Notes under the pieces: model-generated
What the model was told of the DNA's origin: nothing
Database searches by the model: none
What the model saw: the letters and a program-made list of their open reading frames with translations, nothing else
Position numbers and translations under genes: made by a program
Source of the DNA: Giardia intestinalis
Taxonomy: Eukaryota
DNA length: 64,000 bases
Strand: one strand, 5' to 3'
NCBI GenBank assembly: GCA_000002435.2
Contig: CM018790.1
In this document: positions 16,601 to 35,219 of the stretch, piece by piece
Layout: each line of letters opens with the position of its first letter
Numbering within the stretch: the stretch's first letter is position 1

Positions 16601-19326
16601 GAAAGAGACGCTTGCTGAGAAAGCTCTTGCTTGACTGTTTCTCTAAAGTCGTGCATACGTTCATACAGGCTTTGATCTCTTGACGTCCTGTCTGTATTAG
16701 AGGTCCGTCGTGCTGAGCTATCCTTCTGTCCGCTTCCTCTCCGCAATACGATTTTGTCACGCTGGCTTAAGTCATCACTGTACATGCTGGGCTCTCCAGC
16801 CAGTGATCCCAACAGATCCGCCGACTGTTCAAGGTGCTTTACCATGTCCATGCGAGGAATCACGAGCGATGTCTCCAAATCACTCCGTTGCAGCTGAGAA
16901 TTGATAAGACACGAGATGCTCTGCACATTGCTGGACTCTTCTGGTAGATCAACGACATCCTCCATGTCTTCCTTCTTGCCGGAGTACTCTAAACTGCCGT
17001 GTATGGGATATGCATCTAGTTGAGAACATTGCGGCGGAGTTGGATGCGCAAGCGTCTGGAGCCTCTCTTCTATGTCCTGGACATTTCTAACGTTCTGCTC
17101 TGCAGGCGCTATGGCCTCCGAAGATTCGTCAAGGAGCTGCTCTGCTGGTTGCTTCTGAAGATGCTGGTTAGTAGTGTATGGTACAGTAGCCTTGACAGTC
17201 ATCAACGGAGCAGAGTTTTCAGTAGAGAACGAGCTTTTATCTATGGCGAACCCGCTATAAACCTTCTTTAAGTCCACAATATGCTCTGAGATAGAGGTAG
17301 CTTTAATGTCTCTCTCACCCAGTTCCTTGTTCCTGCTGGCAATGGCACGCTGGTAAGAAGTAATGACTGATCCCTTAAATCCCTGGCGTTCGGGGACTAT
17401 AACCCTACGATCTAATCTGCTAACGGAATCAGTAACAGTGTCCAGTTGCTCGCTGTGGCAAATATCAGAAGCTGATCTAACCAGTTCCCTCACTGCACCC
17501 AGGTTATCAGTTTGAGGAGTGGGTACAGGACGCCCTGTTGAATGAGGCGTTCGCCAGATACGTCTTACTTCTATTGGGCCTTCGCTAATATCAAGAGTTG
17601 AATGACTAGCAGCGACATGCGTTGTCCGTGGCTGAAATGATGCGGGAAATTTCTTATCACTGTGCAATATTTGGCGAAAGTTGGACTCTTCAGAAACTGT
17701 AATTGCAGGTGCAGGTGCATTTCTCTGATCTTGGGATTGAACCTTAGAACGGGGTTTTTGATGAGGCTTAGACCTGGTAGCGCTTCGGGAAGCTGAAAGT
17801 TTTGTAAGGCTTGCGTTGAGGCTGCTTTCTATGGCAGATGATTGCGTACTGTGTTGAGAGCATATGGTTTCGAAGATTTCTTCGTCTAGTATAACCTCAC
17901 CGTGATCCTCTGCTGTGTCGTTTGCAAGAGTAGACATGGACACATTCTGACTCTGCTTATCAAGACGAGCTTCTGTTGAAACACGAGAAGGTGTCTTTTT
18001 CTTCCCAATAACTGCATAGATATTTCCCTCTGAGTCAATGCTTAATTCATCCGTTGTGGAGGTCAAGCGTTCTGACTTAGCATGGGAATAGCTGGAATCC
18101 CTGGAGCCTGTAGCAGAGCTGTATTTCTTCTCAAGAGCATCGTTATTACAGGGCACATAAGCGTGGTGTGTCACTGGCATCAAGGAAGGAGCAGTATGAG
18201 TCTTTGAATGGATTGAATTGCCGGTTGGATCATCGTCTGACTTGAGAGCAACCATATCCACATGCACAGTATCATGTTGCGATGGCTCCTGGTCTAGCAT
18301 AGTTTTGGATTCCGGTTTAACTATATTCTCGTCTTGCTGGATGGCTGAAGCGGCCACGGTATCAGTGAAGGGTTGAACACTTAAATTCATTGGTTGTTCG
18401 CAACTAATAGTGACAGGATGATGTCCTTGAGTAATGCTGTTATATGTATCGCCAAAGCAACACCTACTTTGTGTCCAGTTGGTTGTAAATTCATGAAGCC
18501 TGTCTTGAAGGTCTCGCACACTAGTGATACTTGTTCGACGCATGGATGCTGGCCTGGAAGTTGTTTTGCCGTGCTGGATGGGAAGGCTTGTGTTGTGTGG
18601 AGAAAGAAGCCCGCGGGTTGGTATGGAATGCGCAGAGGCAGGCCGCCTGCGCCTATATCTAGAAAGTACATCCTCAGTCATGCCGTGGGTTGCTGCCTCC
18701 AGGTCCATGCCCCTGTTGATGAAGTTAATGGACTCATTGAGCTCTTTCTGGGCCTTTTCATTGCTGAATAGACTGAAGTCGACCCTCATATTAGAGTCTA
18801 ACAAGTCGCGCTGGGCCTCTGGAAGAAGCTCATAGAAATTGTTGTTTCGCAACAGCTGCATGTCTCTAATAGTATACTTTCCCATGGTATTGTCAAGTCC
18901 GGTGCCAGCGCTTACTGGTCGCTTTCGCACCAAGTGCTCTAGCCTCCGGTACGTTTCACTTGACTTGTCGTTGACGCCGTCCTTGAGAAGGAGCTGCCCA
19001 TCCTTATCTATTAGAGATGCTCGTATGAACTTTAGGTCATCAACCATCGTCTCTGTGTCTAGAGTGTTTTGATCTGCATCCCCCATCTCCTTGTAGTCGT
19101 TTCTGGAAGAGCCTAGGGGCTTTGCTGATCCAGGCCGCTTGACTAATGTTCCTGGATGTGCGTTGCTGGAGCGGGATATCATTGCATTGCGTTGCAGGTT
19201 GACCTGGCTCAGCAGAGAACTATGCATAAACTGTGATGCTTCTGCTTCGGTCAAAAAGTCCCCTTGGTAGTACACGTGTATATTGCTCAACATGTTTGGA
19301 GAGGGGATAAGGTGCTGGGATCGCAT
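13633..19326 (-). CDS. giant (≈1,900 aa) Ser/Thr-rich low-complexity protein, hypothetical
   Basis: The track start at 19353 is TTG. The first in-frame ATG is at 19324-19326 (verified). Stop TAA at 13633-13635 verified. Composition is dominated by S, T, P, Q, D with no recognisable domain. Confidence 0.7.
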   Translation of the reverse strand: MRSQHLIPSPNMLSNIHVYYQGDFLTEAEASQFMHSSLLSQVNLQRNAMISRSSNAHPGTLVKRPGSAKPLGSSRNDYKEMGDADQNTLDTETMVDDLKFIRASLIDKDGQLLLKDGVNDKSSETYRRLEHLVRKRPVSAGTGLDNTMGKYTIRDMQLLRNNNFYELLPEAQRDLLDSNMRVDFSLFSNEKAQKELNESINFINRGMDLEAATHGMTEDVLSRYRRRRPASAHSIPTRGLLSPHNTSLPIQHGKTTSRPASMRRTSITSVRDLQDRLHEFTTNWTQSRCCFGDTYNSITQGHHPVTISCEQPMNLSVQPFTDTVAASAIQQDENIVKPESKTMLDQEPSQHDTVHVDMVALKSDDDPTGNSIHSKTHTAPSLMPVTHHAYVPCNNDALEKKYSSATGSRDSSYSHAKSERLTSTTDELSIDSEGNIYAVIGKKKTPSRVSTEARLDKQSQNVSMSTLANDTAEDHGEVILDEEIFETICSQHSTQSSAIESSLNASLTKLSASRSATRSKPHQKPRSKVQSQDQRNAPAPAITVSEESNFRQILHSDKKFPASFQPRTTHVAASHSTLDISEGPIEVRRIWRTPHSTGRPVPTPQTDNLGAVRELVRSASDICHSEQLDTVTDSVSRLDRRVIVPERQGFKGSVITSYQRAIASRNKELGERDIKATSISEHIVDLKKVYSGFAIDKSSFSTENSAPLMTVKATVPYTTNQHLQKQPAEQLLDESSEAIAPAEQNVRNVQDIEERLQTLAHPTPPQCSQLDAYPIHGSLEYSGKKEDMEDVVDLPEESSNVQSISCLINSQLQRSDLETSLVIPRMDMVKHLEQSADLLGSLAGEPSMYSDDLSQRDKIVLRRGSGQKDSSARRTSNTDRTSRDQSLYERMHDFRETVKQELSQQASLSALAAKPRSSLNIPADFEDLPPQTFIDTAVIPLQKRLDEAIAAAMNKKPRLPADESDTLANYIEIDTDKTDDRAATPTMETLYSRQETPRPGDFSTMIEHAQCPKVHGSDDSSNLTDMAALKGVERVAVSRSDTQKPCVDISHPESPLYPLEPRQTVVHVIDLEHPELYEDVHSSINLATHANYHMLDSYRELELSTKPSEIKELAHIDKLLKEAKRLNTSLQASVNKDQLSELPVDYEAKMVLDDYELDANFPILEEGELGIDPTGEKDVILANYKKLTIDAAQKRSVHLDSYPTVPRKTCSMSGRSQEEKAIENNSREGKGSEVKWADTVLDDNEERYETASNECRQLDKAVSWNWRMFAGQGSSVASTEQGHKRTGSYTSALATSAVSQSTKSDSQQKKQKPYNKFERFTPRQFLSSTSISYTFRADQDNNSLGLSALNHSIVTDISASRQLCTNGTLPIQFEAVKDQFNHVASCTKSLLLTQDLDKSGTLDQLDVVQTPEKSSMKSSNIELYTSFSGTPSRADHLSVSRGKTALSESAHNLESKHSHGSMLSASAVQSTTSKMASRPTRIRSAAISKLVEQITSVNSTTAENLAKLGYSKARLESSRDNLLPRNTSRYNEKLEKASLLLEKPKQKASRVPSAVQSEPLSESISGFVEPQNSCSAISDVSEPQAIRAVGNPRGSTFISSGFGGTTNQQPRLLSSKATYEAQMVRIGSSARIRTRTLHPERPVALKTTNDASSSMRVTPVSTRKLSETLPGRPDSGTSRPGKLMKVADVRIGRQNQELLASSSHGDARPYYGGSALFRSVDDMVVAVPSPATRNMVISITRKASVNTPKQTTRDRYGRQSVTSSIVTSPAASKSLLSKRPRSAIASSARESISKITAVAADNEADDSGASLLLQKADLGLEPISIMAKPLAVQSPDRIIKDPYDVRGTLRDEAERFIPCRGFRVSSAGKLRLPSTIEKDIVVNIRPLTAKVGSMTRM

Positions 19327-19844
19327 CAAGGAGGAATTTCGATGATCTAGCAATTTTTGAGTGATGATTCACTTCGCCGTCGGCTGGCTCCAGCGCTATG
19401 CTACCGGGCCTCCACATGCAGGCCTGGCCCAGGAGTCACACGAATGAGCTCACTGCTGGCCATGTTCAGAGCCAGAAGAGCCGGTGCTTGACTTCGAGGC
19501 CATCATTTGTAGGGAGAGGATCTGCCCCTGCATGCTTTCTTCCACCCACCCTCAGCTGGTGTGGTGGCATACCATTTGCATATGCACAGGGTGCTTGCAG
19601 AAGAGAAGGCGTCAGAGAAAAATGGCCCGACTGCGTACTGGGCCTCTTTTGGTCTCTATTCACAAGGGATCACAGGCAGGAAGTATAGGTCAGTTGCTAC
19701 GCATCCACTCGCGTACGTTATAGCACGATTCCAGTCGCAGAGGAAGACCTGCAATATTCACACTAGCTTCACCGTAACGGTGCAGTGCATAGAATGTAGT
19801 TGGGAAACTTGTGTTATCCACACTTGTATTTGATTGCGGAGTCA

Positions 19845-20826: not shown

Positions 20827-22530
20827 ATGGATCCCAGTTACTCCAGTTATTCCACTTATTCCAGCTACTCCAGCTACTCTAGCTATTCCTATAGCTTTGT
20901 AGATGATCAGGATGACTATCCAAATCCGGTGACTACAGCCACTCAGCCCTTTCATGTTGCATCGTCTCCTCAAGCGCATTACATTGCTCCAGCGCCTGAG
21001 AGTCCCAAGAGGGAAGACAAGAAGACATCCCCGCTTGCTGAGAAATTGTCGCCAAAACAGAAGAGGACTAGCCCTGGTAAGAGTGGATTTGAGTTCGATA
21101 CTAACTCTCTCAATTTCTTCTCAGCCCAAACGGCGGCGGCCGTTTCTGCGGCTGTTTCTGCAGCGATAAATCACCAGATCAACCAGAATATACTATTAGC
21201 ACCTTCAACATCGGCAGTAGCGCAGCCTCCCCCGATCTTGTCGCAACAGGCCTCTGTCGACACAGCCCCTGACACAGCTCACCAAGAACAATCATTACCA
21301 GATGCTGCTCAGCCGCCCACCACCGTCGATTCCGGGGAGAAGGCAGTGGACACATACACTATCTATTCCCCAAATCGCGCTAAGAATGCAACGTCAGAAG
21401 ACTTCGTACTTATTTCACCAGCGCAGTCGCGCCACGTCCTACGTCAGGCAGCTAAAGAGCAATCATCACCATCTGAAAACTCAATTGAGAAGACAAACCT
21501 CGCTTTGGCAGAGTTGAAAGATAAGTATATGTCGCTTTCCGCCGAATTCAGAGACTACAAGCTCAAGAAGGAGAGTGAAATTAAGGATCTGATGGCACAT
21601 GAAGCAGAGTTGCGGCAAGAGGCCCGTATTTATCAACGTGATCTACAAAAGTTAGAAAAGGATTATGCTTCAGTGATAGCAAAATTGGCCGACAAAGAAG
21701 ACAAGATTGTAGAGCTGAAGGGTGCCCTGAAGAAACTGGAGAGTACGCTCCAGCAAAAACCCCCTTTTGACATGGCTCCATCTAGAGAACAACCCACTCA
21801 GCAAGGATACAATAGAAAAGAAGTGTCTCAGCAGAAGGAAAACTATTCTCCCCCCGTGGCCCAATCCGCTGCAGTGCCTTACAAGCCAGTTGATAGCATA
21901 AGCAAAATTTTCGGTCCCACTTATGCTGAGAGTAACCCGGTAGATTCAGTCAAGCACAACCCGGCTGGTAAGGAGCCAGACCACACATTAGAACCAAAAG
22001 CATCTCATCATCCTCCAGATCCTCCCCTGGCTACTTCCAACGATGTTCCGATCATGTCCTTTGAGGAATTCCTGAGGCAACGAGCACGCAATGCTGCAAT
22101 AGAAGAGCTACAGCAGCGCGACACACAGGCCAAGAGGGCCATGGATGCCAAGATAGCTTCTCTGCAGGAACAGCTAGGATCTCTACTTACTGACGCGCAA
22201 CCCGATCATGCTACTGCACAACCTGAGGCGACATTTAGTGAAGGCGGAGAGAAGGCGTCTCACACCAAGACGACTTTCACGCTAGAGGATGTGGACAAGA
22301 CAGATCCTAATTACAAGCTGCTACAGACCATGGAGACAGACTACACAGCTATGTGTCAGCAGTTGATGCTTAATCGTGATGAGCTAGCTAATCTTGAAAA
22401 CCGCAGTGGAAAGCGCACACACAAAGAAATGATGCGCATGCGGTTTCTTGAGGCGCAGATAAGCAAACTGGATAGCGAGGCAAACCAGCTCCGCTCCAGG
22501 CTGCGAGCATTGGCCAAAGCTAAAAATTGA
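20827..22530 (+). CDS. hypothetical protein (567 aa): N-terminal Ser-Tyr repeat, Q/A/P-rich middle, C-terminal coiled coil
   Basis: ATG at 20827 verified, after cttcgttcaacttcaaaaATG. N-terminus MDPSYSSYSTYSSYSSYSSYSYS is encoded by a 9-bp tandem repeat. The C-terminal ~250 aa are heptad-rich. Confidence 0.7.
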   Translation: MDPSYSSYSTYSSYSSYSSYSYSFVDDQDDYPNPVTTATQPFHVASSPQAHYIAPAPESPKREDKKTSPLAEKLSPKQKRTSPGKSGFEFDTNSLNFFSAQTAAAVSAAVSAAINHQINQNILLAPSTSAVAQPPPILSQQASVDTAPDTAHQEQSLPDAAQPPTTVDSGEKAVDTYTIYSPNRAKNATSEDFVLISPAQSRHVLRQAAKEQSSPSENSIEKTNLALAELKDKYMSLSAEFRDYKLKKESEIKDLMAHEAELRQEARIYQRDLQKLEKDYASVIAKLADKEDKIVELKGALKKLESTLQQKPPFDMAPSREQPTQQGYNRKEVSQQKENYSPPVAQSAAVPYKPVDSISKIFGPTYAESNPVDSVKHNPAGKEPDHTLEPKASHHPPDPPLATSNDVPIMSFEEFLRQRARNAAIEELQQRDTQAKRAMDAKIASLQEQLGSLLTDAQPDHATAQPEATFSEGGEKASHTKTTFTLEDVDKTDPNYKLLQTMETDYTAMCQQLMLNRDELANLENRSGKRTHKEMMRMRFLEAQISKLDSEANQLRSRLRALAKAKN

Positions 22531-22531
22531 G

Positions 22532-23851
22532 ATGAGCTCCCAGGATGGCGTTACCACCGACAATCAAAATACTCTGACACTATCAACTCATCACATCACT
22601 CACGCACATGATCATGCTGACATTGCCTTGACTCGATACCAATCGTTTGTCGATATGTTAGACCACCCGATGAACTATCAGTCCGTGAACCCCGGCTCCT
22701 ACTCGGGCTATCATCATCGACAGATGCAGTTTATGGCTGTGAAGATGATGCGGAGCCAACAGGAAAGAGAGCGAAACGTTCAACGGAAACTTGGAATAGG
22801 CATAGAGCTGCTCACTGACGTGGATTTGGCAGCTATTCAAGGTTTTCAGAAGGAAGCCAGAGAGGCGATGCTGGATTACAAGAGGCAGCTCGATTCTCGG
22901 CCCGCATTTACGTCCGAATATTTTCCAGAGGTACCGGCAGGATGGAGCGGCAACTCCAAGCAGCCAGATAGAGTTGTAGTCTCTGCAGATTGTGTAGAAA
23001 AGCGAGCAGATGCACAGTCATCCGTTGTGCTGACCAAAACTATCGAGGCTCGGCCCTTTCAGCGGCAAGACCCATCTTATCTGAACAGTGCGGAGCGAAA
23101 GCTTCTCGCAAAAAAGCAAGCAGAGCATAACGCAGCACAGGCGGCACAAGACGCGAACCAGTCTAAGAACAAGAAGCCTCCCCAGTCTGCTCCAAAAGAC
23201 ACTTTAAAGCAAGTGACCCTCTCCCCTGATGAACGAATCTCTGAGGAACCAGAGCCCCTTGTGCGAGACACTTCTGGCTTCACGCCCACGCCACAGTCTC
23301 TTATTGTGCAGAGAATGGATAATTTGCAACGATTGCGTAACGCAGTGAATATAGTTGTCATGCGGAACAGGGCACAAAGAGCTTTGCGCCAGATACAAAG
23401 TGCTTACGCAGAATTTCTGCCCATATATCTGCGCAATAATCAGCAACTTCGGGATAAATCGGCAATCTCTTCTACCTCTCAGCAGAGACGGCTTGTGGGG
23501 CTGACACTGGAAAAGAAATGCCCAGAAAATGTCGCACAAGCATACCACGAGCTTCTTTCATTAGTTGATAGACACAGCAATCAAGCTGAGGGCCAAAACG
23601 ACACAGAGCATCCTGTCTTGACCTTTAACACATGCTTAACGTTTCGCCCACCCCCAATGACAGTTCTGTCTTCAGTTTCGTTGGCGAACACTGACAAGTC
23701 TGATTTGCAAATGGGTCCTTCTATGAGTAGAAGTATTCCAGAACTACTTTTCTATCGTTTTAGTTCCACAAAAGGATGTAATGACAAGCTCCACGTAGAT
23801 GGAAAGGCAGTAAGAGAAGAACAGATCTCTATCATCCTCGACTTCATCTAA
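22532..23851 (+). CDS. hypothetical protein (439 aa)
   Basis: ATG at 22532-22534 lies 1 nt after the TGA of the upstream gene, in a different frame (…aaaaatTGAgATGagc). No recognisable domain. Confidence 0.6.
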   Translation: MSSQDGVTTDNQNTLTLSTHHITHAHDHADIALTRYQSFVDMLDHPMNYQSVNPGSYSGYHHRQMQFMAVKMMRSQQERERNVQRKLGIGIELLTDVDLAAIQGFQKEAREAMLDYKRQLDSRPAFTSEYFPEVPAGWSGNSKQPDRVVVSADCVEKRADAQSSVVLTKTIEARPFQRQDPSYLNSAERKLLAKKQAEHNAAQAAQDANQSKNKKPPQSAPKDTLKQVTLSPDERISEEPEPLVRDTSGFTPTPQSLIVQRMDNLQRLRNAVNIVVMRNRAQRALRQIQSAYAEFLPIYLRNNQQLRDKSAISSTSQQRRLVGLTLEKKCPENVAQAYHELLSLVDRHSNQAEGQNDTEHPVLTFNTCLTFRPPPMTVLSSVSLANTDKSDLQMGPSMSRSIPELLFYRFSSTKGCNDKLHVDGKAVREEQISIILDFI

Positions 23852-24014: not shown

Positions 24015-24959
24015 TCACAGCTTCTTTTCCGGCAGAGCAACCCCGCCAAGGATGGCCTTGTTCGACTCCTTTTTGTCATTAGATGGATCCTCCATTCCTA
24101 GCAATTTTGTCTTCTGCAGAGTTGGGTCGTCGGCAGGGGCCTTATCGTCACTATCGGAGTTTTCGGCAACATCGTCCATCGGGTTCTTCTCCTGCTGGAG
24201 CCCAGATGTCGCATTGCCCTTTGCATTTATTGTCTTGCCAAGGATGTCCGCAACATCCTTCACAGAGGAGAGCGCAAATGTATTTAGAGTAGACATCGGA
24301 GAGCAGAGGTAGGCCTCCCGAAGCGCTGCATCCTCGTACTTCGCAGTAATATAGTTCCTGTAGCGACTATAATGCTGTTGAGACACCACAAGGTCGTACT
24401 TCACGAGCTTTAGGAAGGAGTGTTCTGCCCTGGCCAGCACGTTCTGCGGTATGTTCACAACCCTTGCATAGTCCTTGAGAGAATAATGGAAGTCATCGTA
24501 CATCTTCTGCACTGTGATGAGGCACATGACGGTGACCAGCAGCCAGTTCTGCCGGGTAACAACTATGCCGCTCGCATCAACGATTCTGTCGAGATAGACC
24601 AGGGCGCCGACCAGAGCCTCGTTGCGCATGCGTGTCCTGTATGCAAAGTTGTGGACAAACTTCTTAATGCGTGCCTGCACAATGTCAAGAGTTGTCTGCG
24701 TAAACTCTGCCGTGTTCGCGGTCAGAGAAAGCTCCGGGTCCGGCATCATGAAGAAGGATATCATCTTTGGGCAGCGGTACTGTGGCTGGTTCGGGTGGAT
24801 CGATCTGAGATACTGCTCGTTCTGCTGGATAACGCGCGCAAAGATGACTGCGACTGCGTCGACTGTTTTGTTTGGATGGGGAGACGTCGGCGAGTCGAGG
24901 GGGAGCATGTAGTTGTTCTTATGGTTTGGGATGTCGAAGTTGAGCGCCGGAACAGCCAT
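24015..24959 (-). CDS. PHO80-like (cyclin U/P family) cyclin
   Basis: ATG at 24957-24959 verified. The cyclin-box region …ALVGALVYLDRIVD…TRQNWLLVTVMCLITVQKMYDDFHYSLKDYARV matches the PHO80/PCL consensus (…YLDR… / …HRLLITxVMVAAKFxDD…). Acidic low-complexity C-terminal tail. Confidence 0.7.
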   Translation of the reverse strand: MAVPALNFDIPNHKNNYMLPLDSPTSPHPNKTVDAVAVIFARVIQQNEQYLRSIHPNQPQYRCPKMISFFMMPDPELSLTANTAEFTQTTLDIVQARIKKFVHNFAYRTRMRNEALVGALVYLDRIVDASGIVVTRQNWLLVTVMCLITVQKMYDDFHYSLKDYARVVNIPQNVLARAEHSFLKLVKYDLVVSQQHYSRYRNYITAKYEDAALREAYLCSPMSTLNTFALSSVKDVADILGKTINAKGNATSGLQQEKNPMDDVAENSDSDDKAPADDPTLQKTKLLGMEDPSNDKKESNKAILGGVALPEKKL

Positions 24960-25140
24960 GGATGTCTCACGATACCTTGCTGGAGTAAATTTTATCTTTT
25001 AAGCTGGCAAATTTCTCTAAAGTTTATAAAGTTTCGGTGGGATCTTTTAAGATTTCATGTCTTATGACAATCTTTCATTTCATTATAACACATAAAAATC
25101 TCACTCGTCTTCAGTTACCTGCTTTTATCCCAGTGGCGCC

Positions 25141-28095
25141 ATGCTAGTCGATCTTGACATGCTACTTGTGGCGGAGTTTTGCCAAATACAAGGCCCCACT
25201 GTAATAAGCTCTCTTCCAGACTACCCGTGCATATCCGGCTATACCTACAGAGAGACAGAGCGAATCATCTCTACACTCTTGCTTAAAGTTATGAGCATGA
25301 ACTATCCAGCCGACCTGGACCAGAACCCGCTACCTCACATGTACAATGCTGACTCCTACGTAAGTGTCTCCTACCCTCTACTCTCTCTGGTGGACCAGAC
25401 AGATCCAGATTTCTTTCCGGATCACCATCAGCTGGAGCAGAGAATCATACACATTCTTCACCTCTCTACATTTTTACCAGATATCAGTGCCAGAGGATAT
25501 GTTAGAAAGCTCAGCCTCCTGTATCTGTCTTTCGACCCTAAGAAACTGGACCACATGCGCTTTAATATTTTATTTGCTCTGAACGAAGCCCTCGCACTGT
25601 TAAAGTATGCTGCTACAATCAGCACCAAAATAGATCTGGCGCGGTATATAGTTGGCCTGAACAAATCTATCTCTGATCTGGACCGTGTCGGCAAGATTGT
25701 CGCTAATGTACAATTAAATGAAAAAACGCTGAAATCCCGTCTTTCAGATGAGGGGTTTCCCGATGGTTTTATTTCATCTGTGCTATTTTACTCATCACAC
25801 AGCGCTCTTACAGATATGATATCATCCCTGAAGGGATTTCGCAAGGAGGCCATCACAAGATTCACCCTACTTCGGTCAAAAACGCTTCCTTCTGTAATCA
25901 TTGCAGCGTTAAATCCCCAACACGCTAAGTACTTTTCCCGCCCCTATTTACAACTATTTGACCAAAGAGAAGTAGCAAAGCTCATGCTAGAAACTCTTGT
26001 CCTCAGCGAGGATACAACTAGTGAAGATGTGGACGCCGTCTATTCACCCTATCTCACACGGACCATCGCCAGTATTCTTGAGCACTCTCCACACTTGGTC
26101 TTGTGTAATTCTCACGATCTCTATGTTACTGCCAAGCAGCCACTTAGACGACTTGAAGAGTACTTGAGCCCCCCTTTTCTAGCCTTATTCAAGGAGATCA
26201 TAGAGAAAATCTATGGGTTCTATCGGTTATCTCTCATTGACATTTTAACCACAGAACAGTGCCAGAACTCGCCAGTAGTTCTTAAGTTTGGAGAGGTGTT
26301 TCTGTTCCCTGCCGGTGAGCTGGAGGATTCCCTTGTTCTTCCAAGGAGCTCGTTGCACAACAATGCCAACATTCTGATGGATAGTTACATTGACAGCCTC
26401 CCGTCTCAATTTAACTCCCTCACTAAGCCGACGCGCTTCCTCTATACCCCAAATGTGTGTGCAGATACCTATAGTACTCTGTTGATGACCAAATGGCTCT
26501 TCCTGCATCAGTATAATCCAGACCTTGTACTGAGCTCCATAGCATGGAAGGATCTAGCTAGAGAAGCAGACCTAACTCGAAGTCTACTGGATGATCTCCG
26601 CAGGCCATGTATCCACACATTTATGCACTATAATCACGAGTCAAAGATAGGGCACCTTCTTTTCTTTCTTTATGTGCTGCTGTCGCCCCGTATCTTCAAT
26701 AACACGTGCACGTCTCTTTTGCAAGGCAAACTTCTTGTGGTACTTTGCAACAAGCTCATTGTTGCACAGATATTAGTATCTGCACTATCGGTTTTTTCTG
26801 CAGAAATACTTGTTCAGCCTGTCGCCACGAGAGGAAGCAACCCTTATATCCACAAGGAGCGTGAGTCTATAGATTGCTTAAAAATTTCAGTTGAATTGTT
26901 CCGAGACTTATCCAGTTTCAAAGAGTATTGCTTATCAATTTCTAAGCGCAGAGGAGCCAAGCGGGCTGCAATAGTGGTGTTCTGCAATGATGCGTACATA
27001 CCGTTTTCCGCGGGTGCCTCATTCTCTTCACGAAGTCGCATGACTGTGAATACTTTGACTGGAGCAGACTCACTCATAGATGCTCCCTCTCATCTTCCTT
27101 CTCACCCTTCATCATCGCTGCCCACTCAAGTGAGTAGACTGACCAATGACCCTACCCATGACTGTCGGGGTCATGACCTCTATCTTCAGGACCTAGCAAC
27201 CAGCTCCACAAATCCAGCCATGAAAGCTGCTCATCCCAGACACCCCCCGATTGAAGCAGGAACTAAAACGGTTGGTCCGTCGCAGAGCATTTTTGCAGAT
27301 GCCTCTGCCTTTGTAGAGACAGAGAATTCAGAGTACTCTTCAAAGGATTCAGTAGACTTCTTTGATGATTTGTTTGAGAAGCTATTTATTGATAAAGAAG
27401 ACGAGCTTTGCGCTGCGCTTTTAGCAACAGGCGACGTAAAGGGACTCATGATTCTGGACAGCCAAATTAGATATTGGCCGAATGAAAAGATCAATTGTTC
27501 CGTTGTAAGGTCTATCACTGTGTACTTCCCAGGAAAAGGAGATCGTAATGCTGCAAGCAAGGTAGGTGTCAGTACTGATTTTATTTCGCGCAGATTGCAG
27601 AACGGTCTGTCCAAATTTTTCAGTCCTTTTCTTTCAGGACGGCACCAGAGCCAGAAGAGCTTGAACAAACAACCAGGCACAACCAGTCACGACACCGGAA
27701 TCTCAGAGAGCAGACACGACGATGAGACTGAAGCAGTCAGTCCCCGATTGCAAATGACAGATGCTGGCGCATCGCAAAGAGCACAAATGCGGATAAAAAG
27801 CGGGGATGAGCGGATTCTACCACGATTCAAGGCTGCATTCATGCAAGTAGATGGAGCAAGTCCTGAAGATATTGAACGTGTGTGGAATTCCGATCACTAT
27901 TCTAGGAATGATGGCGAACTATTCATAGAGCCTCCCTCAATGATATCGTCAATTGGCGACTTTCAGGCTATGCCAACTCTTTCTGTTAATAGCGGCCGTA
28001 ATAGAGCGATTGACGACCAGACAATATACAGAAATAATCTAGATTTACAAAGAATTATGATAGACACAGGTATTGACCCTATTGACTACACATAA
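25141..28095 (+). CDS. large hypothetical protein (984 aa) with an N-terminal folliculin/SMCR8-like longin (uDENN-like) signature. The family assignment is tentative.
   Basis: ATG at 25141 verified. N-terminus MLVDLDMLLVAEFCQIQGPTVIS resembles the motif that opens the longin domain of FLCN (ALCHFCELHGP) and SMCR8 (ILISEFSEQVGP). The rest of the protein is not assignable by eye. Confidence 0.7.
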   Translation: MLVDLDMLLVAEFCQIQGPTVISSLPDYPCISGYTYRETERIISTLLLKVMSMNYPADLDQNPLPHMYNADSYVSVSYPLLSLVDQTDPDFFPDHHQLEQRIIHILHLSTFLPDISARGYVRKLSLLYLSFDPKKLDHMRFNILFALNEALALLKYAATISTKIDLARYIVGLNKSISDLDRVGKIVANVQLNEKTLKSRLSDEGFPDGFISSVLFYSSHSALTDMISSLKGFRKEAITRFTLLRSKTLPSVIIAALNPQHAKYFSRPYLQLFDQREVAKLMLETLVLSEDTTSEDVDAVYSPYLTRTIASILEHSPHLVLCNSHDLYVTAKQPLRRLEEYLSPPFLALFKEIIEKIYGFYRLSLIDILTTEQCQNSPVVLKFGEVFLFPAGELEDSLVLPRSSLHNNANILMDSYIDSLPSQFNSLTKPTRFLYTPNVCADTYSTLLMTKWLFLHQYNPDLVLSSIAWKDLAREADLTRSLLDDLRRPCIHTFMHYNHESKIGHLLFFLYVLLSPRIFNNTCTSLLQGKLLVVLCNKLIVAQILVSALSVFSAEILVQPVATRGSNPYIHKERESIDCLKISVELFRDLSSFKEYCLSISKRRGAKRAAIVVFCNDAYIPFSAGASFSSRSRMTVNTLTGADSLIDAPSHLPSHPSSSLPTQVSRLTNDPTHDCRGHDLYLQDLATSSTNPAMKAAHPRHPPIEAGTKTVGPSQSIFADASAFVETENSEYSSKDSVDFFDDLFEKLFIDKEDELCAALLATGDVKGLMILDSQIRYWPNEKINCSVVRSITVYFPGKGDRNAASKVGVSTDFISRRLQNGLSKFFSPFLSGRHQSQKSLNKQPGTTSHDTGISESRHDDETEAVSPRLQMTDAGASQRAQMRIKSGDERILPRFKAAFMQVDGASPEDIERVWNSDHYSRNDGELFIEPPSMISSIGDFQAMPTLSVNSGRNRAIDDQTIYRNNLDLQRIMIDTGIDPIDYT

Positions 28096-28109: not shown

Positions 28110-29195
28110 CTATTTACTGACAAGCCTACTAAGGAGCTCCCGAAGATCCTCCCTAGAAGATCCCTTAAGATTATCGAGAGGAGGTAGAAGCACCTGGACC
28201 TCTATCAAGAGATCTCCGCGTCTACCTAGGCGATCACCCATGATAGGCATCCCTTCCCCTACCATCTTGATCACTTCCCCGGGCTGTGTTATATTATCTT
28301 TCTTCACTTCTATTGCGCGGTCGTCTAGGTGGATAATCCTTTTAGAGAATCCGAAGAAGGCCTCATATAAATTGATGACCAACTTGTACTTTAAATTATT
28401 TCCTTCTCGTGTAAATTTAGGATGTTTTCTTTCGCGAATAACATAAATGAGGTCTCCTGGAAGGTAGCGAAAGTCGAGCCCTTGGTCTCCCATGCCCTCG
28501 AAGACGAGCTGATGCCCATTCGGGGCCCCTGCGGGTATCTCCAGGAAAACGAAGTCTTCTGCGCTTTTAATTGTTGCTGCATGGCAAACGTGGCAGCTCT
28601 TCTGTATTATGCGACCCTCACCGCCACACTTCCAACAGTTATGTTGATACTGCTGATAATACCCATTTCCTAGATCATGGCGTTCTATCGTATACCCTCT
28701 TCCGTTACACCTGTCGCATATGGGATAGTCTGCATCCGAGTCTGCCCCTGTCCCGTGACAATGTGGGCATTTGATCTTGTGAGTGATTTTCTGATTCTGC
28801 GTCTTCCCAGAAAACAGAGTCTCTAGGCTTAAGCTCAGCTCTACAACTGTCGATTGCCCCTTTGGCTGCTGTCCACCGTGCCAATTGTTAAACATGGCTT
28901 GTTGTTGGTTAGGATTATTATTGCTTTCATGCTCTGTAAGGGCCTTTTCACCGCCTTTGTCGTATATTTTCCGCTTCTCATCGCTCGACAGAACCTCATA
29001 TGCCCGCGTGATGTCCTGGAAAGTCTTTGTACAGGCTGCCCGCTCTGACTCTTTACATCTGTCAGGATGCTTTGCTACTGACTGTTTGTGGTAGGCCTTC
29101 TTAAGTTCAGCAGCAGTTGCTGTCTTCGAGACCCCCAGAATAGCGTAGAAATCCCTCTCGTTAAGGATCAAAGCGAGAAGAAGGAACAAAATCAT
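28110..29195 (-). CDS. DnaJ/Hsp40 chaperone, class I/II with CxxCxGxG zinc finger, predicted ER-luminal (N-terminal signal peptide)
   Basis: The track start (GTG 29318) is rejected. ATG at 29193-29195 is verified and preceded by gaactacgtgaaaaaATG. The resulting N-terminus MILFLLLALILNE is a signal peptide. J domain: DFYAILGVSKTATAAELKKAYHKQSVAKHPDR. Four CxxCxGxG-type repeats (CPHCHGTGA, CDRCNGRG, CWKCGGEG, CHVCH). Confidence 0.9.
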   Translation of the reverse strand: MILFLLLALILNERDFYAILGVSKTATAAELKKAYHKQSVAKHPDRCKESERAACTKTFQDITRAYEVLSSDEKRKIYDKGGEKALTEHESNNNPNQQQAMFNNWHGGQQPKGQSTVVELSLSLETLFSGKTQNQKITHKIKCPHCHGTGADSDADYPICDRCNGRGYTIERHDLGNGYYQQYQHNCWKCGGEGRIIQKSCHVCHAATIKSAEDFVFLEIPAGAPNGHQLVFEGMGDQGLDFRYLPGDLIYVIRERKHPKFTREGNNLKYKLVINLYEAFFGFSKRIIHLDDRAIEVKKDNITQPGEVIKMVGEGMPIMGDRLGRRGDLLIEVQVLLPPLDNLKGSSREDLRELLSRLVSK

Positions 29196-29283
29196 TTTTT
29201 CACGTAGTTCACAAAATGACGTCAGACGTTTACGGAGAACACGGTTAAAAGAAAAAGGTGAACATAAAAGCACAAATAGCGAC

Positions 29284-32200
29284 CTAGTAAGTTTCAACGT
29301 CTGGGAGAAACGCGCCACCAGTGACGCTCCCAGCTTCTAGCTTGCGTATCAGAGCGCGGAGCTTTAGAATCTCCTGCTTTCTCGACTCATATTCTTGTAG
29401 AAGACGTGGATCAATCTTAGACTCTGCGTTAGAATTAACCTGGGCAACATGCAGCTCTCTGCGCAGGTGATTTATCTCTTGGAGAAGCATAGCGTTCTGC
29501 TGCACCACGGTCGATGTCGACGACTTCTTTGTTGTCTTGGTATTTGCAAGCTTCCTCTCCAAGTTGCAGATGGTCTTTTCAAGGTGGCTAAAGTTACCCT
29601 CCTCTCTCTTCTTGTCCTTCTCTTCAGTGTATGCATTCGGTTTGAAGGTTAGAGCCATGTACGCATATTTGATTGCTTTGACCAGACGCTTGTATGTCAA
29701 GTTCTCTCCCGGCACCGCAATAGAACGTGTGTAATAATTTCCCTCCCCGCTCTTTGGAGGCTTTAGCGCAGAGCTCGGCGTCCGTCCCGATACGCCACTC
29801 GGTAAGGATTTCGCAGAGTGCCCCGATGGATAAGATCTTATCGACCTGGCAGACTTCCTGTTTGATGCACTTGTTCCTATGCGTGGGAGAGTTGTTGCAC
29901 TCTCTGCCTCCTCACTAACAGTACTAGAGCCGCTCTCTTGGGGCTTCCCCATCACGATAGCATTAAGTCCCCCATGGCTCCCTGAGCTGATATCTGCGCT
30001 GCCCGAAAAGAGCGCAGCAAGTACCGGCGGCTTATTTTCAGCGTCCTCGTATGCAATTAGGCCCAATTCATTAATAAAAGGCCTCATTTCTTCCATGCGC
30101 TTGTTAGTTGCAGCACTGCTTTCTTGCACATCGGTGATTTGCTTCTTCAAGGTAAGGTTCCGCCGCTCGAGGTCCTTTTGTGTGGACTTCAACTGGAGGA
30201 GCGACGTTCGGTAGTTTTGAAGCTCCGTATTCATTTCATTGAGACGTACCTTGAGAGACGCTAGCTGCACATCACGGGGCTCCACTTGACGGCTGTACTC
30301 CCGTATTTTATAGTCTAGCACAAAGCGTACTTTCACCAGCTCGCGGATCTGCTTCCTGAGCTCAAAGACTCTCCTCTCACGGTTGCTGATGGTGTCATCA
30401 CGACTAGAAATCTCAAGCCGTATGTTGCCCATATCCTTACGCTGAGATGAGATGAACGCCTTCAGATCAGCGATCTCCTTCTCCTTTGCTAGGAGGAAAC
30501 GCTTCTGATCAAGAAGCTGCGACTCTAGCTCTGAGTACCGCTCCTTTACCTCTGCATTATATCGTTCTACGTCTGCATAATTGTTATACGCCTTCTGTAT
30601 TTTACGCTCGTAGACGGCTGTAAGTTGGTCTGACTCGTGGTAGAGTTCATTTTCTGATAGATTGAAAAGCATTTCATCCGCCTTCCGTTGTGACTCTATG
30701 TCGTTCTCAATGGACTCCATGATTCTCTTGAGCTTAGATAGATCGGCCTCCTTTGCATTCTTCAGATCAGCTACCATCTGTTCTGTTTCTTGCTTAAACG
30801 CTGCTATCTTCTCCTCTATTTCCTTATCGAACGATAGCTTCTGGCCAGCAAGAACGGCAAGATTATCATTTATGAGAACTAGGCGTCGTTGATATTGCTC
30901 TTGAAGGGCTTCAAGGGAGTTCTTGAATAAATTCTCGTTACTGGTGATCTGCCTCTTTAGGAGGATGGCCTTCCCATCGTGCTCAGCCTCTATTCTACTA
31001 TACTCGCTGAGATAGCTCGAAATATTCTCGCTGGTCTTCTGCCTTATTTGGTTAAGCGTTCTGGAAAACTCTGTCTCCAAATACGTGACCTTTTCTTCTA
31101 GCTTGCGCTTCGCTATGGAAATATTATCTCTAGTCTTCGTGATCCGAGTGAGCACGTCCATGAGGGCGGTGCGCTTGACATAGATGGGCATGTGCTTAGG
31201 CACCATCTGCAAGGACTCCTCTCCAGAAATGCCGCCAAGACCTATCGATATCTTGCTTCCCGTGTTGCCTTTCGATAAGACGATTGTCCTGGGGGGCATT
31301 GTCTTATTTATCAGCACGGAGTAGACGACTCCATCCATGGTCCCCACTATAAATCCATTATTGCTTGGATTGGGCACCAAAGATGTTATAGACCCACTAG
31401 AGACGGGTATGACGATCTCCTTGCTGCCCTCTCCTGGTGCTTCTCCGTTCATAATGTTCGTGATGGAGCGGATAGCCACACAACCAAACTCATATCCCAC
31501 AACAATGTAATTCATCACATTAATAAGACAGAGGGCCCTTCCTTTCGTGTACTGGATGCCAGTGGCCCCGGTTATCGTGCTTCCATTGTTAGTGTTTAAA
31601 TATGAACTGTACTTCGGACACTCTGCCATGTTGCTTGAAATGACAATGATATTACCATCAGATGTAATAGCGAAGAAAACAGGAGTTTCTGGTAGAAGAG
31701 CAGAGCTGTTTGGACTCGCTACTGCCGCAGATCGCGAAATTGTGGAAACAATCCCTTGGGTTGCAGACGCGTGTATGGAAGAGCTCAAGTAATGCGCAGC
31801 AGATATTGGTGCTGCATGAATAAAGTGTACAGAGCGGATAGCTGTTGCGGACTCCTTAGTGAGGGTTGTCAAGTTGTAGCGGCAGACAGCCCCGTCTGAG
31901 CACGTGATAATCACATCTGAAGAGTAACGCATACTGGTGAAGTCCCTTGTCACTGGTGAAATAGAGACTATGCGTCCAGAGAAGTCCGTTGCCTTGGCTA
32001 CTTCAGCACGTGTGTACACGTCATATACATAAAGATAGCTACCAGATCCTGCAACCAACAGATTTCCTGCATTAGTGAAGCACAGGGACTTGCAAAATGG
32101 TATTGGAAACTGATGGATCTTCTCCACCCGATCATAGTAGATCACACAGAACAGCACATACTCCGACGAAGCAATGGCTACGTAATTACCAGAGGGGTGT

Positions 32201-33942
32201 ATAGCACAGACACCAAGAACTTCGTTGAACTTACTATATGATTTCTCAACGAGGGTACTGGCATGGAAGAGCCTCACAATGCGATCCGTGGTCACTATGA
32301 TAAGGTTGTCCGAGGAGGGACATGTCGCCATGGCAAATATGTTTCCATTGGTCATGACTGGCTTCAAGAGATAGAGCTCCTGATTAGTGGATGCGTAGGG
32401 GTCTAGTAGAAAATTATGCAACTCCAGATGCTCATTATGGTTGAGAACGCCCACTGCATCAAAATTGATAGCCATTTCATTATAGTCCACTATTTCCCCT
32501 AGCAATCGGGTGGAATCGGTAGTGAGTGTCTTCTTATCTTCTCCTGCTCCTACTGCAGCGACAGCGGCGACAGTGCCAGATTTATCGGCCTTCTGTGCGA
32601 CTTGACATGCCCTTTGTCTGTCCAGCTCATCAATTCGCTTGGTAATCGCTTGCATATTGACAGCGAAAATGATCTTAAACATGTCCGATCCACCGAGACA
32701 GAGTACACTCCGCTCGTTGGTTGTCAGGTGGACAGAGTGGAAGTGGAACGGTGGGCTGACCCGAGAGAGGATGTGATCGATAATAGCCCCTGCTGAGTAA
32801 GAAAGGAGATGCTTGAAGACATGCTCTAGGTTCAACTTTCCCTCTATCTTTGCAGAATTCCCATAGACAACAGATGTGATGAAGTTGCAGATAGGACTCA
32901 TAAGGACTCCGTAAATGTTCAGTATGCCTCCATAGCAGAATGTGGCAAGATAGCAGACGCTACGTTCTTCCTGCTTTACCTCTTCTGCTATCCTATCGAA
33001 GATTCGGACAGAGTTCATTGTGCCAGTTGTGACAGAAGAGCCTGTTGCAGACTCTGCGGAGCGAAGGCCATTTGGGCCATTGCCACCGGGGAAAATTAGG
33101 GCAATATTAGAAATACTGATGTCTTTAAACGCTCTACATTTGAACTCAGAGATGACGGTGTTGTTATACATGATCAGAATGGTACCTTCTGAAGTGCTAA
33201 TAAATATAAGCCTGTCCGTGTCCAGAGGAAGCAGAGGAAATCTTTTCTTTAAGTGGATATTTATGTAATTCAAGTCTGTGAATGTGCGCTTCCCCGGGAG
33301 CAAGGACAGCCCCGAAGGAGGGAGGATCTTTGCACTGGAGTCCCCCAGCTTGATGCATCGCAACACCGGACCAGAGCAGATGACCAGATCCTTGTCGGAT
33401 AATTTAAGGACTTTAATCTTAGAGAAGATGCGCATCTGTGCCATTTGATTCCCCCCTCCACCGACTCCCACAGCCGAGTCGCTAAAGAGATTTTCATGGC
33501 AAATGGTTAGGCTAAAACTAGGTGTGGCTGACTTGCTTTCGTTGTCGAAAATGCAAAAGGCATAGTCTGGAGAGCCAGTGATAACAAGCAACCTAGTGTC
33601 TGTTAAGAGATCTGCATAAAAAAGCGACGCACCAGGCTTGTCAGACACAACCATTCGATGCTTGAACACATAATTTAGCTGGCCCTTTAGCTCATAGAAC
33701 GCTACACTTGTTCCGTCCCGACGCTCTTCCGACACAATGAGTTTATCTCGGGACTCGCTGAAGACAAAGCATACGATGTTTTTCACTCCCTCTCCAAGGG
33801 GCAGCACTTTAACAGTGGACCCGTCAGTGATGTTCTGAAAGACGATGTGGAACCCAGAGAGATAAGCTGCAACCTCTCCTCCCAAATAGTATATGGACTG
33901 TGCTGTCCCAGAGTGTACGCCAAACGTTGTTGTGATAGACAT
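29284..33942 (-). CDS. WD-repeat/beta-propeller plus long coiled-coil protein (1552 aa). Possibly a CFAP57/WDR65-like flagellar protein; identity uncertain.
   Basis: ATG at 33940-33942 verified. The N-terminal ~900 aa have recurring beta-strand-rich blocks typical of WD propellers. Residues ~900-1300 are heptad-rich coiled coil. The C-terminus is Ser/Gly-rich. Confidence 0.8.
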   Translation of the reverse strand: MSITTTFGVHSGTAQSIYYLGGEVAAYLSGFHIVFQNITDGSTVKVLPLGEGVKNIVCFVFSESRDKLIVSEERRDGTSVAFYELKGQLNYVFKHRMVVSDKPGASLFYADLLTDTRLLVITGSPDYAFCIFDNESKSATPSFSLTICHENLFSDSAVGVGGGGNQMAQMRIFSKIKVLKLSDKDLVICSGPVLRCIKLGDSSAKILPPSGLSLLPGKRTFTDLNYINIHLKKRFPLLPLDTDRLIFISTSEGTILIMYNNTVISEFKCRAFKDISISNIALIFPGGNGPNGLRSAESATGSSVTTGTMNSVRIFDRIAEEVKQEERSVCYLATFCYGGILNIYGVLMSPICNFITSVVYGNSAKIEGKLNLEHVFKHLLSYSAGAIIDHILSRVSPPFHFHSVHLTTNERSVLCLGGSDMFKIIFAVNMQAITKRIDELDRQRACQVAQKADKSGTVAAVAAVGAGEDKKTLTTDSTRLLGEIVDYNEMAINFDAVGVLNHNEHLELHNFLLDPYASTNQELYLLKPVMTNGNIFAMATCPSSDNLIIVTTDRIVRLFHASTLVEKSYSKFNEVLGVCAIHPSGNYVAIASSEYVLFCVIYYDRVEKIHQFPIPFCKSLCFTNAGNLLVAGSGSYLYVYDVYTRAEVAKATDFSGRIVSISPVTRDFTSMRYSSDVIITCSDGAVCRYNLTTLTKESATAIRSVHFIHAAPISAAHYLSSSIHASATQGIVSTISRSAAVASPNSSALLPETPVFFAITSDGNIIVISSNMAECPKYSSYLNTNNGSTITGATGIQYTKGRALCLINVMNYIVVGYEFGCVAIRSITNIMNGEAPGEGSKEIVIPVSSGSITSLVPNPSNNGFIVGTMDGVVYSVLINKTMPPRTIVLSKGNTGSKISIGLGGISGEESLQMVPKHMPIYVKRTALMDVLTRITKTRDNISIAKRKLEEKVTYLETEFSRTLNQIRQKTSENISSYLSEYSRIEAEHDGKAILLKRQITSNENLFKNSLEALQEQYQRRLVLINDNLAVLAGQKLSFDKEIEEKIAAFKQETEQMVADLKNAKEADLSKLKRIMESIENDIESQRKADEMLFNLSENELYHESDQLTAVYERKIQKAYNNYADVERYNAEVKERYSELESQLLDQKRFLLAKEKEIADLKAFISSQRKDMGNIRLEISSRDDTISNRERRVFELRKQIRELVKVRFVLDYKIREYSRQVEPRDVQLASLKVRLNEMNTELQNYRTSLLQLKSTQKDLERRNLTLKKQITDVQESSAATNKRMEEMRPFINELGLIAYEDAENKPPVLAALFSGSADISSGSHGGLNAIVMGKPQESGSSTVSEEAESATTLPRIGTSASNRKSARSIRSYPSGHSAKSLPSGVSGRTPSSALKPPKSGEGNYYTRSIAVPGENLTYKRLVKAIKYAYMALTFKPNAYTEEKDKKREEGNFSHLEKTICNLERKLANTKTTKKSSTSTVVQQNAMLLQEINHLRRELHVAQVNSNAESKIDPRLLQEYESRKQEILKLRALIRKLEAGSVTGGAFLPDVETY

Positions 33943-34196
33943 TCCGGCCTTGCAGTGACTAAACTGGCACTCCTACAAGCGGATTTAATCTTTAGATTCC
34001 CTAAAATTGTCTGGCATTTATCTGGCATCAGAATTTGCCATAAATATTAAATTTCAGCATTTCACTTCACATGTCATATAAAATTTAAAAATATAAGTCA
34101 TGAAGTCATGTATCATCAAAATAGAAGAAATTAGTGTTATGCAACGCTCGGAAAAACCTGAAAAAACTAAAAACTGCGGCAGCGGTCTGGCGATCC

Positions 34197-35219
34197 ATGG
34201 CTACTCATCCACTGCCTAAGGACTACGAATTTATCTCGCAGATTGGCGAGGGGACCTACGGGACTGTTAGTAAGTGTTCTCTCCACGGGCAGTTGCTTGC
34301 GGTGAAACGTATCAAGATGGATTCGTCCTCCAAAGGGGTTCCGGCTACGACGCTCCGCGAGGTGGCGATTCTGAAGGCCCTCAATGCGAAACAGCGTGAG
34401 TTGGTGGAGCAAGGAAAGCTTGAAAGTCTGTCACAGGCGAATGTGGTTAATCTTTTAGACGTTGTTTATGACTTGAGCAACATATTTCTAGTTTTTGAGT
34501 ACTGTCACGTTGACCTAGATCAGTATCTCAAACACAATGTCCTGTCTCCTTACCAGATAAAAAAGTTCATGTACCAGCTCCTCCAGGGCCTCAGTTTGGT
34601 TCATAAGAACGAGATCTTGCATCGTGACATCAAGCCCAACAACATCTTGTTGGCCTTTCGCGGAGATGCAGGGGAACAATTGGCCGCCAATGCGTCTGTG
34701 ACTACGCCGAATCCGGACGCAGACAATTGTGTTTTGAAGATTACGGACTTCGGCCTTGCACGGTCATACGGCATAAACGTGACGTCCATCTCGGCCAATG
34801 TCGTCTCCCTGTGGTACCGGGCTCCCGAGCTTGTTCTAGCCTCGAAGACGTACTCCACGGCTGTCGACATGTGGTCCATGGGGTGCATAATGTACTTCCT
34901 TGCGAATAAGAGGGCCCTGTTTCAGGTTCGAAAGGATGCAGATCTGCTGCAGCTGGCGTTTAGCTACTTCTATGTCGACTCCTCTTCTATTTCTGACCTC
35001 ATTTCTCTGCCCAACTGGAATATGTACGTTGGAGAGAACCAGGTCATCGACTTAGCGGCGCTCAATGCCCCGGGGCGCAAGCCCCGTGAGGTAGACATTA
35101 ACATAGATGACGTCGGTAAAGACCTCTTCTACAAGCTCCTGATGCTGAACCCCAGCAAGCGAATTTCGTGCGACGAAGCTCTCCAGCATCCGTGGTTCGA
35201 CGACCTAAAGAAGGGCTAG
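34197..35219 (+). CDS. cyclin-dependent kinase family Ser/Thr protein kinase
   Basis: The track start is GTG 34134; ATG at 34197 gives MATHPLPKDYEFISQIGEGTYGTVSK (Gly loop). A PSTAIRE-like helix PATTLREVAILKAL is present, together with HRDIKPNNILL, DFGLARS and WYRAPE, all in canonical order. Confidence 0.9.
   Translation: MATHPLPKDYEFISQIGEGTYGTVSKCSLHGQLLAVKRIKMDSSSKGVPATTLREVAILKALNAKQRELVEQGKLESLSQANVVNLLDVVYDLSNIFLVFEYCHVDLDQYLKHNVLSPYQIKKFMYQLLQGLSLVHKNEILHRDIKPNNILLAFRGDAGEQLAANASVTTPNPDADNCVLKITDFGLARSYGINVTSISANVVSLWYRAPELVLASKTYSTAVDMWSMGCIMYFLANKRALFQVRKDADLLQLAFSYFYVDSSSISDLISLPNWNMYVGENQVIDLAALNAPGRKPREVDINIDDVGKDLFYKLLMLNPSKRISCDEALQHPWFDDLKKG

Follow-up and report, generated by a model that had tools for sequence, protein, structure and literature searches.

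The stretch of Giardia intestinalis DNA analysed here (64,000 nucleotides of contig CM018790.1, assembly GCA_000002435.2, hereafter the window) contains, at 25141..28095 on the plus strand, an ATG-initiated open reading frame (ORF) of 984 amino acids plus a stop codon, whose product starts with MLVDLDMLLVAEFCQIQGPTVISSLP in the ORF listing of the window. This product is identical to GL50803_15399 of Giardia intestinalis WB C6 (= GL50803_0015399; KAE8302440.1, XP_037901753.1, UniProt D3KGK9), which, like its copies in every other Giardia strain, is still listed by GenBank, RefSeq and UniProt as a "hypothetical protein", and which is mentioned in no paper found by a literature search. An earlier note, made from the sequence alone, had described a 984-residue protein with this N-terminus and had read in it a longin (uDENN) signature of the folliculin (FLCN)/SMCR8 type. 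The ORF is confirmed and the signature is supported by profile comparisons and by three collinear motifs, which show the first ~176 residues to be homologous to the longin domain of SMCR8. The whole protein is read here, with a probability of about 0.78, as a highly divergent diplomonad longin-DENN protein of the FLCN/SMCR8 family, of the type that supplies the arginine (Arg) finger of a GTPase-activating protein (GAP) and with Arf or Rab GTPases as its most likely substrates. Proteins of this family contribute the arginine finger to dimeric longin complexes with GAP activity, which switch off small GTPases. The features of the N-terminal domain are the following:

25141..25668, plus strand: FLCN/SMCR8-type longin (uDENN) domain, residues 1-176, with the predicted elements given below
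25174..25197, plus strand: GP motif EFCQIQGP, residues 12-19, at the turn between strand 1 and strand 2; E12, G18 and P19 do not vary across the alignment of 26 sequences described below
25276..25305, plus strand: second motif LLLKVMSMNY, residues 46-55, placed by alignment to SMCR8 SLRIMSVDYQ
25480..25506, plus strand: Arg-finger motif DISARGYVR, residues 114-122; D114, A117, R118, G119 and R122 are invariant in the same alignment

A profile of diplomonad N-termini (residues 1-176), compared by hhalign with an alignment of 15 SMCR8 longin domains, gave a probability of 98.3 % and P = 2.6e-14 over 147 columns, whereas the best of 60 column-shuffled control profiles reached P = 0.0038 and the reversed profile P = 0.47. 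With one human-type SMCR8 in place of the SMCR8 alignment the value was P = 2.2e-8, and with GL50803_15399 alone against that alignment it was P = 3.4e-12; the identity to SMCR8 is only about 18-20 %. When the diplomonad profile was compared with the whole PDB, SMCR8 was the sole match (6lt0_B, E = 0.085), in an alignment that pairs fLPDisARGyvRklsllYlsfDakKl with LYDLEARGFVRPFCMAYISADQHKI and sets Giardia R118 on SMCR8 R147; with the full-length profile, the match to SMCR8 gains another stretch in the same order (SLLQGKLLVVLCNKLIVAQILVSALSVF versus SLLSGRTLVVLGEDEAIVRKLVTALAIF).

Three motifs, [IL][IL]x[SA]EF[SC][EQ]xxGP, L[RK][IV]MS[VM][DN]Y and DxxARG[FY]VRxxxxxY[IL][ST]xDxxK[IL], are collinear between the Giardia protein and SMCR8. 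The strings that the earlier note had quoted from FLCN and SMCR8 are correct, since the FLCN sequence P0111 starts with MNAIVALCHFCELHGP and the SMCR8 sequence P0038 contains FILISEFSEQVGP. The G18-P19 pair, whose counterpart is SMCR8 G68-P69, is invariant in all diplomonad orthologs, and R118 (codon 25492-25494) is aligned not only to SMCR8 R147 but also to FLCN R164. The SMCR8 sequences retrieved for comparison came from vertebrates, a hemichordate, an insect and a mite, with several JGI/ENA sequences rich in low complexity (possibly amoebozoan). In a hybrid alignment of 26 sequences, made of diplomonad proteins and SMCR8s, the positions D6, E12, G18, P19, P26, D114, A117, R118, G119, R122 and K155 do not vary from Giardia to vertebrates. 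A six-frame translation of the 64-kb window holds a single copy of EF[CS][EQ]xxGP and a single copy of DxxARG[FY]xR, and both lie within this ORF, arranged as in SMCR8 and FLCN; by chance, a proteome of 2 million residues would hold about 0.14 and 0.08 copies, respectively, and both in order within one protein would be expected at about 1e-9. Among longins, the GP motif is confined to those of the GAP type (FLCN, SMCR8, C9orf72 and NPRL2), where it adjoins the Arg finger, and it is absent from DENND-family and other non-GAP longins (PMC12290439). In the SMCR8 complex with ARF1, Arg147 is the catalytic finger and points at BeF3, the GTPase being cradled by the longin domains of SMCR8 and C9orf72 (PMC8213707).

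AlphaFold2, run on the hybrid alignment, gave a model with a mean predicted local distance difference test score (pLDDT) of 50, in which the longin domain is confident (pLDDT 70-86). Its predicted elements are strands 7-14 and 18-25, helix 36-51, strands 72-79, 102-113 and 121-130, and a long helix from residue 133, that is, the beta-beta-alpha-beta-beta-beta-alpha order of the longin fold. The weak PDB matches of this model in Foldseek are enriched in FLCN, NPRL, Lst4 and SMCR8.

Full-length orthologs of GL50803_15399 are found in assemblage E strain P15 (GLP15_4475, EFO61395.1; 87 % identity by alignment, 86 % by BLASTP), in assemblage B (GL50581_1541; 75 % by alignment), in two Giardia-like lineages from Logan read-archive assemblies (P0004 and P0005; 69-71 % to WB) and in G. 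muris (GMRT_15494; 33 %), which indicates a real and conserved gene. The two read-archive lineages, farther from WB than either assemblage B or assemblage E, may be assemblages or species of Giardia that have not yet been sampled. A more distant, diplomonad-like ortholog of 1338 residues (P0035) shows 23 % identity overall and 43 % in the longin domain. Encoded at L001:6001-10017 of a 45-kb contig (Logan SRR31929897), it is interrupted by several long inserts of low complexity. Genes are densely packed on this contig and encode eukaryote-type domains (kelch beta-propeller, DEAD helicase, FSH1, ArfGap and CCCH zinc finger), without synteny to the Giardia locus, and the source of the contig is probably a so far unsequenced diplomonad outside the genus Giardia. 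An exhaustive HMMER search with the Giardia profile among 1.84 billion cluster representatives returned orthologs only (P15, G. muris and P0035), with no paralog and no bridge to other eukaryotes, and a word-indexed search likewise returned orthologs only.

Conservation among these proteins is highest in the longin domain, high in residues 269-400, 481-621 and 735-835, and lowest in residues 622-734 and 836-984. Beyond the longin domain the protein was divided as follows:

25669..26634, plus strand: helical linker and conserved middle region, residues 177-498; no assignable fold, low AlphaFold2 confidence past about residue 245
26635..26991, plus strand: candidate DENN core, part one, residues 499-617; contains SLLQGKLLVVLC, which resembles SMCR8 SLLSGRTLVVLG
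26992..27339, plus strand: variable, probably disordered insert, residues 618-733; pLDDT about 30, least conserved and rich in indels
27340..27480, plus strand: candidate DENN, part two, residues 734-780; AlphaFold2 pLDDT 59-82, 81-93 % identity among G. intestinalis lineages
27481..28092, plus strand: C-terminal tail, residues 781-984; low-confidence and poorly conserved apart from helix 812-831

The first helices of the region 177-498 align with the post-longin helix of SMCR8. Further on, the model based on the hybrid alignment predicts, with moderate confidence (pLDDT 60-83), an alpha/beta unit spanning residues 531-779. The first part of the candidate DENN is made of helix 499-527, strand 531-536 (LLVVLC), helix 539-558, strand 583-587, helix 590-603 and strand 610-615, and the second of helices 733-749 and 755-763 and strands 766-771 (GLMILD) and 776-779 (IRYW). 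An unguided MAFFT alignment brings full-length arthropod SMCR8s into register with the diplomonad proteins at SLLxG[RK]xxVL, the DENN-core motif. Residues ~499-780 are rated as a probable but unproven DENN domain, split by a disordered insert of ~115 residues, and the conserved helix 812-831 could be a remnant of dDENN. Long low-complexity inserts within longin and DENN domains are typical of the family (PMC3521125).

Several results weigh against placing the protein in this longin-DENN family. The longin fold appears in the model, but Foldseek found no match in the PDB at E <= 1e-3; moreover, the hybrid alignment included SMCR8 sequences, so that the fold matches of AlphaFold2 are not independent and amount to a test of compatibility, and a run on six Giardia sequences only was unusable (pLDDT 29). 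For the DENN region, hhalign of a DENN-core profile gave P = 0.038 against the SMCR8 DENN, at the wrong position, and P = 0.41 against the FLCN DENN, the C-terminal half gave P = 0.26 against the SMCR8 C-terminus, and the DENN-core profile found nothing in the PDB. A DENN-core hidden Markov model scored 1.9 bits at the expected site of GL50803_15399, where the null distribution of 500 shuffles had its 95th percentile at -1.4 and its maximum at 3.1, and it failed in G. muris and in P0035. Plain searches were also negative: Pfam hmmscan at E <= 10 returned nothing for the whole protein, its first 250 or its first 600 residues, so that the Folliculin and DENN profiles to which the earlier note had looked do not recognise it, nor do uDENN, DENN and dDENN, as would be expected of a classical DENN Rab guanine nucleotide exchange factor (GEF) of the DENND1 kind. 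Searches of the PDB by phmmer with the protein and by hmmsearch with a Giardia-only profile found nothing relevant, and none of the PDB sequence matches was significant alone (best E = 0.085).

The failure to reach the Folliculin family (PF11704) is nevertheless weak evidence against membership, because one of two genuine arthropod SMCR8s (21.7 and 30.2 bits) also falls under the gathering score of 23.3 bits and because the first position of the model corresponds to FLCN residue 105, past the strand with the GP motif. GL50803_15399 has no match to it at E <= 10, and its distant orthologs match this model below that score (P0035, E = 8.8e-4, 19.6 bits; G. muris, E = 0.14, 12.4 bits). The missing GP strand and the low scores of arthropod SMCR8s themselves also explain why the diplomonad proteins are still called hypothetical. 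For a protein that neither Pfam nor single-sequence searches recognise, the present analysis gives a defensible annotation, a candidate catalytic residue (R118) and a domain map.

A chance origin of the short N-terminal likeness, in a lineage-specific protein with an unrelated fold, would agree with the lack of any Pfam match and with the poor AlphaFold2 run on Giardia sequences, but it is hardly credible in view of the hhalign value over 147 columns, with its negative shuffled and reversed controls, and of three collinear motifs whose in-order co-occurrence has so small an expectation; it was rejected. A different question is which branch of the family is represented. In single-sequence comparisons, GL50803_15399 is clearly nearer to SMCR8 (P = 2.2e-8) than to FLCN (P = 0.0082), a comparison on which the closeness to SMCR8 mainly rests, given that the family search for FLCN yielded amniote sequences only (at least 83 % identity) and hence no deep FLCN profile. 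The FLCN value, obtained with a single sequence or with five amniotes, falls inside the range of the shuffled controls and is confined to the Arg-finger stretch, with R118 on R164. An FLCN/Lst7 ortholog, which would serve a strongly diverged Rag-type GTPase as its GAP and so act upstream of Giardia TOR, is therefore an unlikely reading, also because RAG and GATOR1 are reported absent from Giardia (PMC5745459) and because FLCN carries, after its GP strand and ahead of the remaining longin domain, an insert of roughly 80 residues that is missing here. Less likely again is a longin-DENN protein that is no longer a GAP but a scaffold, a DENN-type Rab GEF or an effector, in which the Arg and GP motifs would be structural: from Giardia to vertebrates there is no variation in the GP motif or in the Arg finger and its flanks (DxxARG[FY]VR), non-GAP longins, including the DENND family, do not have the GP motif (PMC12290439), and the Pfam DENN, uDENN and dDENN models do not match.

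Among the known systems, SMCR8 (a GAP for Arf and Rab8a/11a and the catalytic subunit of the C9orf72-SMCR8-WDR41 complex, CSW) shares with the Giardia protein the homologous longin domain with its three motifs and finger residue (R118 = R147), a long helix after the longin, the DENN-core motif SLLxG[RK]xxVVL and a large disordered insert in the C-terminal half. It differs in that its VRPFC after the finger, with proline and cysteine, is VRKLS in Giardia, in that the DENN and dDENN of the Giardia protein are undetectable by sequence statistics, and in the C-terminal tail of ~200 residues, which has no counterpart. FLCN/Lst7, the RagC/D GAP whose partner is FNIP/Lst4, gives no significant profile match. 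At the sequence level there is no match either to NPRL2/NPRL3 of GATOR1, which are without a full DENN and carry winged-helix domains, or to the FLCN/SMCR8-type longins of Asgard archaea, which are single-domain or roadblock-longin proteins. Owing to the shallow FLCN set, the protein is filed as "FLCN/SMCR8-type, SMCR8-like" and not as a proven SMCR8 ortholog, a placement that matches the one given by Zhang et al. (2012; see below).

If GL50803_15399 is a GAP subunit of this kind, it would form, together with a second, C9orf72- or FNIP-like, subunit, a longin-longin platform that holds a small GTPase, and R118 would enter the nucleotide pocket of the latter and stimulate GTP hydrolysis. No candidate for such a partner was found within the 64-kb window. 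The most likely substrates would be Arf-family or Rab GTPases in the endomembrane system of Giardia and not a Rag/TOR amino-acid sensor, since the sequence is nearer to SMCR8 and since RAG, GATOR1, RHEB and TSC are all reported to be missing from Giardia (PMC5745459). Thus, of the TOR-Rag or Rab regulator suggested by the earlier note, the Rab side is favoured, in the form of an Arf/Rab GAP, and the TOR-Rag side is the weaker one.

Next to GL50803_15399, a PHO80-type cyclin (PF08613, E = 4e-14; 24015-24959, minus strand) is divergent from it across an AT-rich spacer of 181 bp. On the other side, a type-I DnaJ with J domain, CXXCXGXG zinc finger and C-terminal domain (28110-29318, minus strand) is convergent with it and ends 14 bp past its stop codon. 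Upstream of the DnaJ gene lies a gene for a 1552-residue protein with a WD40/EML-like beta-propeller and coiled coil (29284-33942, minus strand), whose 3′ end is overlapped by the GTG-started DnaJ ORF, so that DnaJ probably starts in truth at an ATG inside this ORF. A protein kinase (PF00069, E = 2e-58; 34134-35219, plus strand) and a Sec1/Munc18-family protein (PF00995, E = 1e-36; 43572-45389, minus strand) look ordinary and bring no evidence of a functional link to GL50803_15399. With such neighbours (cyclin, DnaJ, WD40/coiled-coil, kinase and Sec1) and a non-syntenic locus for P0035, functional inference from the gene neighbourhood was rejected. Four other ORFs, at 13633-19353 (minus strand, 1906 residues), 37302-42908 (minus strand, 1868 residues), 20827-22530 (plus strand, 567 residues) and 22532-23851 (plus strand, 439 residues), have no Pfam match at E <= 1e-3 and may be further divergent Giardia proteins. 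Two GTG-started ORFs, one antisense to the cyclin (24420-25067, plus strand, 215 residues) and one antisense to GL50803_15399 (27231-27680, minus strand, 149 residues), are probably artefacts of listing ORFs mechanically.

A last question is how these data relate to what was known of the family in Giardia. Zhang, Iyer, He and Aravind (2012) detected the C9ORF72 and FLCN-SMCR8 clades in parabasalids and diplomonads and listed a protein of Giardia lamblia P15, gi:308158833, which they named for the FLCN-SMCR8 clade only; their text holds no residue-level analysis of it (PMC3521125). As the exhaustive profile search found no Giardia paralog, gi:308158833 is most probably EFO61395.1/GLP15_4475, the P15 ortholog of GL50803_15399. 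The non-metazoan C9orf72 finds of that study have been summarised as including Trichomonas (PMC12290439). A pan-eukaryotic survey of 2025 describes the CSW and folliculin complexes as rare in parasites, and the legend of its concatenated CSW tree does not have Metamonada among the groups listed (PMC12290439). An FLCN/SMCR8-like protein in Giardia has therefore been known at the family level since 2012, with its database annotation still missing, and what is added here (a map at residue level, the assignment as SMCR8-like and the split DENN) is a useful refinement of known biology, not a change to it, and nothing categorically new.

More tentatively, and with the odds against it, the Giardia protein could be the core of a minimal CSW-like GAP that works as a homodimer, or with a partner that cannot be recognised, on Arf or Rab GTPases at the peripheral vacuoles or encystation vesicles. 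According to this idea, the Giardiinae in general would have kept an SMCR8-type GAP intact without Rag, GATOR1, a canonical lysosome and possibly C9orf72/WDR41, and, if true, the ancestral role of the family would be the control of membrane traffic and not TOR nutrient sensing. In any case, the rarity of the CSW and folliculin complexes in parasites, together with the reported absence of Rag and GATOR1, makes an SMCR8-type GAP of Giardia a convenient minimal system, suited to asking what the SMCR8/FLCN family does outside the TOR-Rag context.

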